This document shows positions 53,501 through 59,500 of a DNA stretch of 64,000 nucleotides, piece after piece. Positions within the stretch are counted from its first letter, which is position 1, and every line of letters begins with the position of its first letter. A program made the position numbers. This DNA is from a plasmid. Location: the sequence record NZ_CP023785.1; one strand, written 5' to 3'.

Positions 53501-56500
53501 AGACCCTGTTGCTTCACTGGGAGAATATCCTAGTTCAGCTTGTAATGCAAAAATTAATGCTTGATTTGAATTTCTTTGATAAATACCATCACAAGGCATT
53601 ATTCCCGTGTATTCTAAATAATTTACATTTAACCATTGCTGCATTTTTCTAATTTTACTATCTCCGCCGGGAACAAGAACAAAAGCACTCATATCAAATA
53701 ACGCTTTGGCCCATTTCGCATCCAAAACTCCAGTTACAGCGCTTCCATTAAACCCTGCATCAGTCTGCAACTCTTTTACAGCAGTATCTAAATATGGAGT
53801 ATATACCCCATCGAAGCCACCTGGATTAATCCCCTTACACCAAAAGGCACCTTGAATAAGAAATACAATATTTTTAGGTAGATTTTTGCCCCATTTAGGA
53901 GTAACCTGATTATCGTACATTTTTTCAGTGGTAGGTCCAAAATTAGCTACTAGATTAGTAATACCAAGTTCTACTTGTAGTCCTTCAATAAGTCCATAGA
54001 TTGTAGGCCACCCTGTTCGCCCATTTTCTGGAACCTTATCAAACCCTGTAACATTACTGTATTTCTTGTTTAGCCATTTCTGAGTACTTAAAACCATCTC
54101 ATCCATAAAAATCCCCTGCTTTCTTGCCGAACATACGTTCGTTTATGTGTTGATTATATTTTATATTTTAGTGTTTGTCAACAACTAAAAATAATAAAAC
54201 AGCACAAAGAAATCTCTTTGTGCTGTTTTATTAAATATTTTGAACAACATAATACGTACCTGCAACAGGATTATAAGTGTAATAAATACCTATATTCATT
54301 GTCCAACCAGGCCCGTTTGGTGCAAAGTATTTGAATCCTTCACGAGCATACAATGCCATTCCTTGAATAGAACCAGATTTAGTTGCGTTGGCTTGATTTA
54401 CATTTCCTACTCTTCCATCGTCAATGTAGGATTTCCAACGTAAAAAGTTGCCTGTACCATCAGCTGGTTTTACACCCATACCTCCAAAACGCCATCCCGC
54501 ACCACTAAATGGCTGTGATTTATAGCTTCCTCCTCCTGCTAGTACAAGAAGGTGTCCGCTAGTACCAACATCGGGTGGAAATGCTCCTCGAGGCATAATT
54601 GGAGTAGTTTCAATATCATTTTTGAATTTTTCAGCAACAATTTTTTTTGCTTCTGTCACTGAAACTGAAGCAGGATCAGTTTCTGAATTATATGAACCTT
54701 GAATTATATCTGGATTATCCATAGATACAATTTTAGCTTCCCCTTTTAAAAAACCACCTTCTGGCAATGCAAGTACTTTATCTTCTTCTTCAAAATCAGC
54801 AAAGTATCGTGAGGCGTACTGCTCTGGATCTGAAATAACTTCTTTCTCAGCAGCATATACTGCATTTCCAAATGTTAACATCATAAGTAGCCCAACAGAA
54901 ACACCAAAAATCTTTTTCATAATGAATCTTCCTTTACTCTAATTCCACTGAATTAGTTTCTTTTATCTGCTTTAATTCATTTCTTTTACTATTTAAAAGC
55001 TCTTTTAGATCCTTAATCGAAATAGCGTTGGAATCAGTATTAACATCAATAAACTGTCTGTGATTTTGTTTATAACTAACTAATTCGGATTTGCCATCTC
55101 CCATTAATTGCCCACCAGCAGACAAGACAACAATTTTATCTGAGTCACTAATTCCTGGAATACTTTCTTCTAACTGTTCCCCGGATAAATCACCAAATTC
55201 TTTATACAATTCTTCATCTGACATAGAATAGATATTTTTGGTCAAACTCATTTTTTTATTATTATGTTCAGCTACTCTTTGATCTTTTATTTGAGCGTTT
55301 GAATTAACAGAATCTAAATTCAAAAGAAAATAGCCCCCAATTAATATTGTAAATACTGAAAAAATACTTAGTATCGTTTTTTTCACGATTCTCACCTCGC
55401 TTTCTTATTAAATTTATAATATATATCTACGATAAGATAATTGGTTCTGTTGCAAAGTTTTAAATCTACTATCAAATAAGATAGAATAATAGAAAAAGAT
55501 AGCAGGAGGAATAACGATGAATCATTTTAAAGGAAAGCAATTTCAGCAGGATGTGATTATTGTAGCCGTGGGCTACTATCTTCGTTATAACCTTAGCTAT
55601 CGTGAAGTTCAAGAAATCTTATATGATCGTGACATTAACGTTTCTCATACGACGATTTATCGTTGGGTGCAAGAATATGGCAAACTACTCTATCAAATTT
55701 GGAAAAAGAAAAATAAAAAATCCTTTTATTCATGGAAAATGGATGAAACGTACATCAAAATTAAAGGAAAATGGCATTATTTGTATCGAGCCATCGATGC
55801 AGATGGTTTAACCTTGGATATTTGGTTACGTAAAAAACGGGACACACAAGCAGCCTATGCTTTTCTTAAGCGGTTAGTGAAGCAGTTTGATGAACCGAAG
55901 GTTGTAGTCACAGATAAAGCCCCCTCTATTACAAGTGCCTTTAAGAAACTAAAAGAATACGGCTTTTATCAAGGGACAGAACATCGTACCATTAAATACC
56001 TGAATAATTTGATTGAACAAGACCATCGTCCAGTAAAGAGACGCAATAAATTCTATCGAAGTTTACGCACTGCCTCTACCACGATTAAAGGCATGGAAGC
56101 CATTCGAGGATTATATAAGAAAACCCGAAAAGAAGGCACTCTCTTCGGGTTTTCGGTCTGTACTGAAATCAAGGTATTATTGGGAATCCCAGCTTAAATC
56201 ATAGATACCGTAAGGGATTTTATTCTTTATTTAAAACTTTGCAACAGAACCCAAATTTTGTTCCTCCTCAAAGAAAAAGAGACTTTTGGAAAGAATTTCC
56301 AGAGTTCACGTAACCCTAAAAATTCATATCCAAAAATCTCTAGCTTGAAGAAACCTAAAAATATTCGTATAATGAACCTGAGTTACGGAGCTAGGTGAAG
56401 TAGTTTCCGTAAATAGTCGAGAGTGTTAGCGCACTGCTCGGCTTTTATTTTGCTCTTTTTTCTCGTTTTCTTTGATTATAGCACTCCTCCTAAAAAAATA

Positions 56501-59500
56501 AAAAGACCTCAGGGAATTTCATTCCCCGAACCCCTTGAGCCTCCTCCTGCCGAAATGGAAAGGGCGCACCCGCTGTTTATTTCATTCAGCTATCGGCTTT
56601 CACAATCTAACACGATCGTTCCGCTACCAGTCGCCTTACAGGCTCCATTTTCGCTCCTCTAACGTGTTTTAACGATTGTGCCGATAACTAAACGAAATAA
56701 ACGCTAAAACCGCTCAGAACGCAAAATATGCCATTTTAGAGCTATTGTAGAAAATGTAGTTTGAAATGCAATTTTCTTCTTTCAGCTTTTTATTTCCCAC
56801 TTGTAAATCTGCTAATTATTTTCTACCAGACAAACCATTGATTTTTTGGCTATCAGTTAACTCACGATTATTATGAGAAATGCTTGTATTCTTTGTTCCC
56901 TTTTTGAACGAAATACTAAACCCTAAGGTGAACCCCTCCTTCGCGCTGTCGCTAATAAAAAGAGTGTAAACCTTTCTGTTACTCTTTGACAAAGAGTAAC
57001 ATTTTCCTAATTGTGACATGGCTGTCACAATTCCAAACGCTCTCCGAGGGTTTTCGCTGTCACAAGTGACAACGAAAAAAGGAGCCGAAAGCGTGTCACG
57101 CTCTCAACTCCTTTTACGCTTTATTTTGCTTCACGCAAAATAATCGCTTATCTTAAACATTGACGTAAATTTACTCTCACTTATCTGACTTTTTTACTCG
57201 GTATCACTCCGAGTAAGCCGTCATATTCATTGGGATAATCTCGTCTGCTTCGCTCTAATTTTCCAGAGTGAGGGGTAACTCCTTCCCCCGAATTACCCCA
57301 AAGAGTGACACTGGGATATCCCTAAATTTATTATAAAAAGCCAAGTCTCTTTGCGCAACTGTTTTATCCAAGTCGGCATTTGCGGATTCGTTAGCGTTTT
57401 TTCGCTCTTGCTGCAAACGCACGACCCACCATGCCGACTTGTGCTGAAAATAAAAAAGTGGACAAAAATTCATCCACTCATTCTTCCGTCACGTCCAACC
57501 CCAAAAGCCACGTATCCAATTCTTTTTTCAAAACATCTGCCGATTCCGAAAATGTCTCTCGTAAATGATTAACTAACTCATCACTTTGGCTTTCTTTTTT
57601 CAACAAATTTCGATATTTATATTTTGTATGACGAGCCAAGCCAGCCCATAAATTTTGATCTGAAATCAATCCTGCAATCATAATTCTATCAGTATGCTTT
57701 GTATCAGTCGGCAAAAAATGAGGACTTGCGAAACTGTCTAAACTTTCATGAACCATCGCATACCAATCAGTAGCTTTTCCACGCCGTAACTGCAATTCCA
57801 GTCGCCACCAAGTTTTTATTTCCGGTGGTACAATTTTCCGTTTGGTTTCTTGTTCCAATTTTTTGTTGTACATCCTTATTTGTCGCTCACTGGCACGACT
57901 ACCCCAATATGCCGTTTCCAGCTTCCCAGACCGCCCATAGATTGGTTTGAATGAAACAGGGTCAACCACACGATATTGCGTAATAAAATCATCAGGCACA
58001 TCGATAATGTCGCAAGCAATATCAGCACGTGAGAAATGTGGTTCTAAAAATAAATCATGGATAAAGTTCTTCATCGAACCCGCCAAAAATTGGCTAATTT
58101 TATTTGGGTTAAAGTCAATTCGCCCTTGCCCTTCTTGATATTTCAAAATTTCAATGTAAGCAATATTCTCATCATGCTTATCCACAATTTGCCAACCATT
58201 TAGACCAACAGATTTAACATAACCATTATTTTCATTCAGTCGCATTAACTGTTCAAAGTCTAAAATCAATACATCATTTTGCGTGTGATAATAAATATTC
58301 TCTTTGAGTTTTCCAACAATGGTAATTCGGTCAATTGACCACTGTATTTTAAGGGGGGTGGTCAAAGTTTGCACACTTAACCGCCTGTTAGATAGGGCTG
58401 TTAAATTTTCCCACTCATTTATGATCGTGCCACGTTTACTCAAATTTTGGTTCTGTTGCAAAGTTTTAAATCTACTATCAAATAAGATAGAATAATAGAA
58501 AAAGATAGCAGGAGGAATAACGATGAATCATTTTAAAGGAAAGCAATTTCAGCAGGATGTGATTATTGTAGCCGTGGGCTACTATCTTCGTTATAACCTT
58601 AGCTATCGTGAAGTTCAAGAAATCTTATATGATCGTGACATTAACGTTTCTCATACGACGATTTATCGTTGGGTGCAAGAATATGGCAAACTACTCTATC
58701 AAATTTGGAAAAAGAAAAATAAAAAATCCTTTTATTCATGGAAAATGGATGAAACGTACATCAAAATTAAAGGAAAATGGCATTATTTGTATCGAGCCAT
58801 CGATGCAGATGGTTTAACCTTGGATATTTGGTTACGTAAAAAACGGGACACACAAGCAGCCTATGCTTTTCTTAAGCGGTTAGTGAAGCAGTTTGATGAA
58901 CCGAAGGTTGTAGTCACAGATAAAGCCCCCTCTATTACAAGTGCCTTTAAGAAACTAAAAGAATACGGCTTTTATCAAGGGACAGAACATCGTACCATTA
59001 AATACCTGAATAATTTGATTGAACAAGACCATCGTCCAGTAAAGAGACGCAATAAATTCTATCGAAGTTTACGCACTGCCTCTACCACGATTAAAGGCAT
59101 GGAAGCCATTCGAGGATTATATAAGAAAACCCGAAAAGAAGGCACTCTCTTCGGGTTTTCGGTCTGTACTGAAATCAAGGTATTATTGGGAATCCCAGCT
59201 TAAATCATAGATACCGTAAGGGATTTTATTCTTTATTTAAAACTTTGCAACAGAACCATAATAAGTCTCTATTTTTCAATAACTATTGCAAAATTATATC
59301 TTAATTAAGAAAATATTTTTATTTTAAAGATAAAAAATTCTTCATCCTGCAATACTTTATATTCTATATTGTAATTATTCAGAATATTACTTACAATATA
59401 TAAACCTAATCCATTACTATTTTCCTTATTTAAATCAAATTTAACATCAAATATTTTATCCATATTCGAAATTTTATTGTTACCGTATGAATTCTCTATA

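Follow-up and report, generated by a model that had tools for sequence, protein, structure and literature searches.

The formation of cointegrates by copy-in (replicative) transposition of the insertion sequence (IS) IS1216 has been achieved experimentally (PMC6952201). In Enterococcus faecium, the 3,199-bp plasmid pCOLA lies between direct IS1216 copies in pHHEf2, a pRUM-like plasmid of ~25 kb; compared with free pCOLA, it has gained an 8-bp duplication, which falls inside rep, the replication initiation gene, and disrupts it (Microb Genom 2025, PMC12711152). Staphylococcal captures of pUB110 and pT181-type plasmids by IS257/IS431, found in multiresistance plasmids and SCCmec, are unresolved replicative cointegrates that display direct IS copies, an 8-bp duplication and a rolling-circle replicon of the pT181 Rep family (PMC5703833, PMC6952201). 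These captures usually bring resistance genes with them. Loss of the plasmid's replication functions commonly follows, and for rolling-circle plasmids cointegrated by IS257 a tendency toward deletion of the replication region is described (PMC5703833). Small Rep_trans plasmids have already been recognized in surveys of E. faecium (PMC13141415, PMC10117061). Here, we analyzed a 64,000-nucleotide stretch of plasmid record NZ_CP023785.1 (hereafter the window), in which two IS1216 copies, termed A and B, enclose an entire 2189-bp rolling-circle plasmid that is opened at the start codon of its rep gene.

The locus agrees with pCOLA in IS, species and mechanism, but another plasmid was captured and the recipient is a rep_cluster_893 megaplasmid. 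Unlike in pCOLA, whose rep open reading frame (ORF) is split, the ORF is whole and its start is severed from the Shine-Dalgarno (SD) sequence, leader and promoter. The locus also shares the features listed above with the staphylococcal captures; in contrast to most of these, the insert is cryptic, consisting of rep and origins, and thus offers no obvious selected cargo. Like the pseudo-compound transposons and translocatable units of the IS26 family, the segment could in principle exit as a 3006-bp circle and re-enter beside an IS1216, although here, unlike in those units, the passenger is an entire replicon whose own duplication documents the copy-in itself. Literature searches found no paper describing this particular capture, and the integrated structure is already annotated gene by gene in public records. 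The capture is a very clean new case of a well-understood process and comes as no surprise to a specialist.

The segment between copies A and B (56252-58448, 2197 bp) carries the octamer CAAATTTT at both of its ends, and the terminal identity stops at 8 bp. Sequence comparison showed that A and B are in direct orientation with 0 mismatches over 809 bp, but both differ at six positions from a third full IS1216 in the window (37441-38249, inverted), which fits A and B being sisters from one replicative event. Terminal inverted repeats GGTTCTGTTGCAAAGTTT are present at both ends of each copy, and the encoded transposase (226 aa) matches Pfam DDE_Tnp_IS240 (1.5e-41) and is labeled as an IS6-like IS1216 family transposase by PGAP in CP017793. 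The outer flanks of the IS pair, AGATAATT and ATAATAAG, are unrelated to each other, as expected for an IS that resided on the large molecule and targeted the small plasmid. An earlier, sequence-only reading of the window had described the octamer-flanked 2197-bp segment between direct IS1216 copies, and its coordinates and description proved exact to the base. It had also proposed a replicative IS6-family cointegrate, which is supported by the direct and identical copies, the 8-bp duplication and the recovery of both parental molecules at 100% identity. Judged by its sequence, the structure is that of an unresolved IS26-family copy-in cointegrate, X-IS-T-plasmid-T-IS-Y, as would be produced from a donor X-IS-Y and a circle with T.

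Both parental molecules and the product were sought in public data, using PLSDB for plasmids and an assembly collection indexed in blocks for the exact Rep protein. When circularized in silico, as the sequence-only reading had suggested, positions 56260-58448 gave a 2189-bp circle with a single CAAATTTT and 0 mismatches to CP006626.1, the known free plasmid p6 of E. faecium Aus0085, which itself holds the octamer once. In total, eight free circular 2189-bp plasmids 100% identical to the insert were found in PLSDB. In the assembly collection, 1132 blocks contained the exact Rep protein; 774 were contigs of 2-5 kb, and only 22 exceeded 50 kb. The donor state was queried with a 1609-bp construct (one IS1216 with 400 bp of flank on either side), which had coverage of at least 80% in 101 records and was contiguous at 100% identity over its full length in 40/40 E. 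faecium megaplasmids among the matches listed. The finished product with identical junctions is present in CP017788, CP017793, CP017798 and OP378674, and identical junctions together with the neighboring genes recur in at least 13 NCBI assemblies. MOB-suite typing assigns the integrated records to rep_cluster_893 and rep_cluster_943.

The duplicated octamer places the insertion at the very start of rep. On the minus strand, the junction of the circular plasmid reads GAGGAGG-AACAAAAT-TTG AGT AAA CGT (in full, CTTTGAGGAGGAACAAAATTTGAGTAAACGT), comprising the SD sequence GAGGAGG, an 8-nt spacer and the TTG codon. In the free plasmid, an in-frame stop lies 18 codons upstream of this TTG with no intervening start codon. 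The proposal that circularization joins the ribosome-binding site GAGGAGG directly to an in-frame TTG-AGT-AAA-CGT is confirmed. PGAP (WP_002305972.1) and the Aus0085 authors annotate the same start and the same 321-aa product. Both GAGGAGG and TTG are kept in four diverged relatives (1932-2189 bp), followed by LSK(R/N/K)G..NEWE.LTA with substitutions, and a fifth relative of the 1979-bp type has an ATG start behind GGAGG. As the start is a TTG that is annotated alike and conserved in four relatives, the octamer, which reads AAAATTTG on the rep strand, covers rep from -5 to +3. We rejected the options that the free plasmid has a longer ORF or that the Rep N-terminus is encoded elsewhere, given the upstream stop, the lack of a start between and the conservation of TTG and SD.

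In the integrated state, rep is separated from its promoter, leader and SD. The gene retains its TTG (58443-58441), but this codon is now preceded by ...TTTGCAACAGAACC from the IS, and the SD with all upstream rep sequence runs from 56260 onward at the opposite end of the insert, 2.2 kb away and facing copy A. There, the orphaned TTG behind the SD begins a 7-codon ORF (LGSVAKF) that runs into copy A. An IS-provided ATG start (MQQNQN...) had been suggested for the integrated gene; the codon concerned, at the left end of copy B (58461-58459), is in frame but is a TTG, and no SD precedes either candidate TTG. A promoter scan found no promoter-like site on the minus strand of 58317-59222, the copy B side of rep. 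Outward hybrid promoters formed from IS ends are known for IS257 and IS26. Such a promoter was considered for the IS1216 end and rejected, as no acceptable -10 element follows the TTGCAA of the inverted repeat at a spacing of 16-18 nt and the scan was negative. The right end of each IS1216 does carry an antisense promoter-like site (TTGCAA-16-TAAAAT, minus strand, 56217-56244 and 59223-59250). These inward-facing sites could affect transposase expression, and so could the orphaned rep promoter, leader and SD (56255-56483), which lie antisense to the transposase of copy A. Overall, we infer that Rep synthesis has been lost from the integrated copy.

Taken as a whole, copy-in capture at the rep start followed by silencing of rep is very probably the correct explanation of the locus. 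The donor would have been an IS1216 resident in an E. faecium megaplasmid, at the right-hand end of an IS1216-bounded accessory element. Copy-in transposition from this position into the free 2189-bp pT181-family plasmid at CAAATTTT, the rep start, would have produced an IS, an 8-bp duplicate, the whole plasmid linearized at the target, a second 8-bp duplicate and an IS. The cut would leave the rep ORF and the double-strand origin (dso) beside copy B and move the promoter, leader, putative antisense RNA and SD to the other end, 2.2 kb off and facing copy A. Rep would then no longer be made usefully, so that the rolling-circle replicon would fall silent and not interfere with theta replication of the megaplasmid, and the origin and control-RNA gene would stay intact as passengers.

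The fate of rep in other captures was assessed by surveying IS1216-associated relatives in PLSDB, a small, non-exhaustive sample drawn from a spread listing. Besides the window copy, rep was split, cut from its expression signals or deleted in 10/11 scorable relatives. Four other captures have perfect 8-bp duplications, and in three of these rep is split: by ATCGTGCC at rep +13..+20 in CP130848.1, by GACCAATT at +100..+107 (equivalent to 58337-58344) in p2001564_3, and by AGCAATAT at codons ~93-95 in CP131041.1. The fourth, pRR-1-10_04, has its duplication (CATTCAGC) in a hairpin resembling a single-strand origin (sso) and is the sole survivor in the survey, with rep intact and 336 bp upstream kept. 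Six further copies are decayed and have lost rep or its leader. Among them, the copy in pUCH1-1 (NZ_CP096212.1), a conjugative megaplasmid of 291 kb, stems from an independent capture of the 2189-bp plasmid, beside aac(6')-aph(2'') and without a duplication (positions 3001-4997 of the extracted stretch). It lacks exactly the equivalent of 56290-56480, the stretch of the leader, -10 element and antisense RNA gene, a pattern typical of IS-adjacent deletion after capture. In pTT39_p3, CP131503.1, CP131038.1, pSJ245vanA and p2016S06-219-3, rep is partial or absent. CP019974.1 ran off the record end and was left unscored, and CP130830.1 and KN985989.1 were excluded. The former, a 'linear' plasmid of 84 kb in which IS1216 copies enclose roughly two units of a 1935-bp relative in tandem (extract 2323-6434), is probably a concatemer. 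The latter is a 2.9-Mb scaffold that ends in two different small plasmids head to tail (extract 2288-5483), probably a scaffold artefact. For an earlier subset in which 7/8 were scored as disabled, a simple binomial yielded values from 0.06 down to 0.001, according to the target fraction assumed. The survey outcome is in line with what is published on IS257 (PMC5703833) and with the IS1216 capture of pCOLA through its rep (PMC12711152).

The positions of the duplications were also compared. Three of the five independent captures with intact duplications (-5..+3, +13..+20 and +100..+107) fall within 112 bp around the nick hairpin (58377-58404), in a comparison of captured plasmids of 2.0-4.4 kb with n=5 and a region defined post hoc. 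This clustering could reflect either a target preference for the origin region or selection. Two ideas, both of which we regard as unlikely, are that IS1216 copy-in is directed near the origin rather than being random and then filtered by selection, or that the integrated copy serves as an incompatibility or exclusion determinant against free plasmids of the same specificity. Of the five complete-genome strains in which a copy is integrated, none is represented by a free 2189-bp plasmid within the 13 PLSDB records at ≥99% identity.

Several observations weigh against capture with silencing as set out above. The weak promoter-like site of copy B (59250-59223, 9/12) faces inward and could read through the IS into rep, and an internal GTG at rep codon 24 (58374-58372), positioned behind AGGCGG, might give a trickle of Rep. 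No decay that would indicate disuse is seen in the integrated copy, which still matches the free plasmid at 100% identity. Silencing is not obligatory, as pRR-1-10_04 was captured with rep intact, and its retention of rep together with the upstream 336 bp implies that an expressed rep is tolerated at least sometimes. Finally, sequence alone cannot separate direct copy-in from a two-step route by way of a translocatable unit, since both have the same outcome, and it is parsimony that favors the direct event.

In the two-step route, the plasmid would have been captured elsewhere with the same duplication, or a plasmid::IS1216 form would have arisen first, and the resulting 3006-bp unit (IS plus 2197 bp) would then have joined the resident IS1216, through either the targeted conservative reaction of the IS26 family or homologous recombination of one IS copy with another. 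This route would end in an identical structure; for IS26-family elements including IS1216, the conservative reaction is reported to be far more efficient than copy-in (PMC6952201, PMC7885326), and an IS1216 resides at exactly this megaplasmid position in ~100 records. Against this, the CAAATTTT-flanked unit was seen at no second location, the sites of the exact Rep protein being this context, the pUCH1-1 event or a scaffold artefact, and no ~3.0-kb circular plasmid::IS form was present among the 13 PLSDB records. With rep cut from its expression signals, such an intermediate would also persist only transiently or with a helper. Because the unit was seen in no other location and the ~3.0-kb form was absent from these 13 records, we rank the two-step route below direct copy-in and consider it improbable.

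Alternatively, the integrated replicon may still be active, with Rep made by read-through combined with the SD-less TTG or an internal start, which would make this a genuine two-replicon megaplasmid. The rep ORF and dso are indeed intact and identical to those of the free plasmid, MOB-suite calls two replicons, no terminator is predicted between the weak antisense promoter-like site of copy B and rep, and carriage of a captured rep in intact form is possible, as pRR-1-10_04 demonstrates. Conversely, the native promoter, leader and SD have moved to the other end of the insert and no SD precedes any candidate start. The 10/11 other integrated relatives in which rep is broken or removed argue that an active rolling-circle rep is selected against, and a like pattern is described for IS257 cointegrates (PMC5703833). 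An active second replicon is therefore quite improbable, and capture by copy-in with loss of rep expression is preferred.

An artefact, either a small high-copy plasmid misassembled into an IS repeat or a chance octamer, is effectively refuted. Misassembly does typically arise from small plasmids and IS repeats, and the survey met two odd records (CP130830.1 and KN985989.1), but it makes no exact 8-bp duplication of a sequence present once in the plasmid. Moreover, independent complete plasmids of the PacBio era and draft assemblies from 2013 share the junctions, a chance match of two given octamers at the local base composition has p ~3e-5, and in four more members of the family this architecture comes with other, equally perfect duplications.

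The captured plasmid resembles pT181 and pC221 (RepC/RepD; 4CWE, 4CWC; PMC4797284, PMC5775427) in Rep fold family and tyrosine motif, in a predicted dso within the 5' coding part of rep that combines a conserved nick hairpin with a variable specificity repeat, and in a long leader with a putative antisense promoter. Unlike those plasmids, it is much smaller, has no resistance or mob gene and shows low overall similarity, and its control mechanism is proposed by inference only. The assignment of the protein to Rep_trans by the sequence-only reading holds: Rep scored 34.2 bits against Pfam PF02486 (cutoff 29.6), with a match that covers residues 179-237 only, and residues 103-312 matched the staphylococcal replication initiation proteins 4CWE/4CWC in the PDB (E = 1.8e-25). 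An NCBIfam search of Rep gave no match. The putative catalytic Tyr192 (57868-57870) lies in IRMY192NKK, which aligns with IRIYNKK of 4CWE; the catalytic residue of RepD is Tyr188 (PMC5775427).

An ICRII-like nick hairpin, TTAACAGCC-CTATCTAACA-GGCGGTTAA (= TTAACAGCCCTATCTAACAGGCGGTTAA, 58404-58377), has TCTAA in its loop and is conserved in all relatives. The pT181 nick hairpin AAAACCGGCTACTCTAATAGCCGGTT (from NC_001393.1) encodes KTGYSNSRL of RepC, and the homologous codons here encode LTALSNRRL. Directly after the hairpin lies an inverted repeat whose two arms change together among five relatives (TGTTCA/TGAACA, TGTACA/TGTACA and TGTAAAAA/TTTTTACA), and a plasmid-specific variable repeat is the behavior of ICRIII in the pT181 family (PMC5775427). 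Since the nick hairpin occupies codons homologous to those in pT181 and is followed by an ICRIII-like variable repeat, the predicted dso is within the 5' part of rep and not in the TGTGACA palindromes, whose candidacy as the origin is unsupported.

The sequence-only reading had seen no other convincing gene in the remaining ~1.2 kb and had called the whole a cryptic minimal rolling-circle plasmid. The label is fair insofar as the small ORFs have no family match (Pfam searches with four small ORFs of the non-rep region returned nothing credible), but the region is not empty: besides the putative rep promoter and its leader, a possible countertranscript gene and a module resembling an sso are located there (Table 1). 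The leader architecture is conserved in five relatives. Covariation among six sequences indicated a conserved structure with one pair showing a double compensatory change, variation being too low for proof. In the countertranscript region of the five relatives, promoters and stems are conserved and loops vary. Rfam searches of both strands of the free plasmid at E ≤ 1 identified no countertranscript family, only sub-threshold, meaningless matches to miRNAs and sRNAs. By analogy, the leader and antisense RNA appear to resemble countertranscript attenuation of the pT181 type.

The sso-like module is 96-100% conserved among relatives with diverged rep and is common (~80%) to small plasmids of Lactococcus, Latilactobacillus and Clostridium. 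More broadly, the non-coding block at ~56480-57150 is 96-100% identical among relatives whose rep (window 57485-58443) is only 60-90% identical, which implies module exchange between plasmids. The palindrome cluster includes AATTGTGACA-TGGC-TGTCACAATT at 57009-57032 and a terminator-like 18-bp stem with a T-run at 57115-57077 on the rep strand, and is possibly the rep terminator. The 276-bp block must be dispensable for replication, as it is absent from the 1.9-kb relatives.

Table 1 Features of the captured plasmid and its flanking IS1216 copies (window coordinates).
Feature	Position	Strand	Remarks
IS1216 copy A	55443-56251	+	809 bp; transposase ORF 55517-56197
Left copy of target-site duplication CAAATTTT	56252-56259		AAAATTTG on rep strand; remains with the SD
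Orphaned rep expression module	56255-56483	-	Promoter, leader, hairpin, SD and TTG; putative promoter and attenuator roles
rep SD, GAGGAGG	rc of 56263-56269	-	
Leader hairpin	56278-56341	-	Terminator-like, then T-run just before SD
rep leader, ~215 nt		-	Folds with z = -4.2
Putative countertranscript gene	56345-56462	+	Antisense to rep leader
Countertranscript promoter TTGAAG-17-TATAAT	56345-56373	+	Scores 10/12
Putative ~80-nt RNA	56380-56462	+	Two stem-loops and U-tail; fold z = -2.3
Putative extended -10 rep promoter TGCTATAAT	rc of 56475-56483	-	Proposed from sequence
sso-like module	56511-56747	-	Candidate single-strand origin
Long imperfect hairpin in sso-like module	56574-56704	rep-sense strand	DNA fold z = -3.3
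TGTGACA/TGTCACA palindrome cluster	57001-57115		96-100% conserved in relatives
276-bp block with 72-aa ORF	57209-57484		Absent from 1.9-kb relatives; ORF without Pfam match
rep	57478-58443	-	321-aa pT181-family (Rep_trans) initiator; ORF complete; without SD, leader or promoter
Predicted dso	58335-58404	-	Inside 5' end of rep, first ~110 bp; intact; 37 bp from copy B
Right copy of target-site duplication CAAATTTT	58441-58448		Reverse complement supplies the TTG start kept by rep
IS1216 copy B	58449-59257	+	809 bp; transposase ORF 58523-59203
rc, reverse complement.

The capture is nested in a larger IS1216-bounded region. Positions 37441-59257 (21.8 kb) are delimited by inverted IS1216 copies, the third copy at 37441-38249 (-) and copy B (+), and are flanked by a direct 8-bp repeat ATAATAAG (37433-37440 and 59258-59265). 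A single ATAATAAG marks the uninterrupted site, which lies between a transposase gene of the IS256 family and a histidine-kinase gene and was contiguous in 15/15 megaplasmids among the matches listed (e.g., pE1_230) at 100% or 99.9% identity over 800 bp; 30 records had coverage of at least 80%. The region thus looks like a compound-transposon-like insertion. IS26-family elements normally move with direct copies, and the inverted arrangement is unusual. Given the empty-site, single-IS and product records, three nested states exist in the population: the empty backbone, the backbone with a ~18.8-kb IS1216-bounded element, and the latter with the captured 2189-bp plasmid.

Beside copy B, the histidine-kinase gene (window 59305-61461) has an ORF of 341 aa that continues, at its 5' part, into an element of the IS256 family; the transposase of this element lies at 60289-61461, and its end repeat (60187-60486) matches 38703-39002. 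The kinase is intact, with 439 aa, in CP017793 and most relatives, so the window carries an extra IS256 insertion. Other window repeats lie at 18279-19239, 27546-28506, 35879-36839 and 42532-43492, with further pairs at 7574-8782 / 23717-24925 and 15649-15948 / 40073-40372, and several of these repeat families appear to be IS256-family transposase genes. Partial IS1216 copies are present at 44448-44678 and 47977-48407, and a diverged IS6-family element ~79% identical to IS1216 occupies 48408-49212.

With the single-IS donor, the free target, the finished cointegrate and the empty backbone site all public at 100% identity, the locus provides a clean natural record of IS1216 copy-in in clinical E. 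faecium, as it has been shown experimentally. The survey adds to the rule that rolling-circle plasmids captured by IS26-family elements nearly always end with rep disabled. Replicon typing scores these megaplasmids as two-replicon mosaics, although the second replicon is without its expression signals and is probably inert, and multi-replicon counts are consequently inflated. With an origin that appears intact, the megaplasmid might be acted on in trans by a co-resident free plasmid; as the integrated copy retains both its dso and its putative control-RNA gene, it might in turn interfere with a free plasmid of the same specificity.

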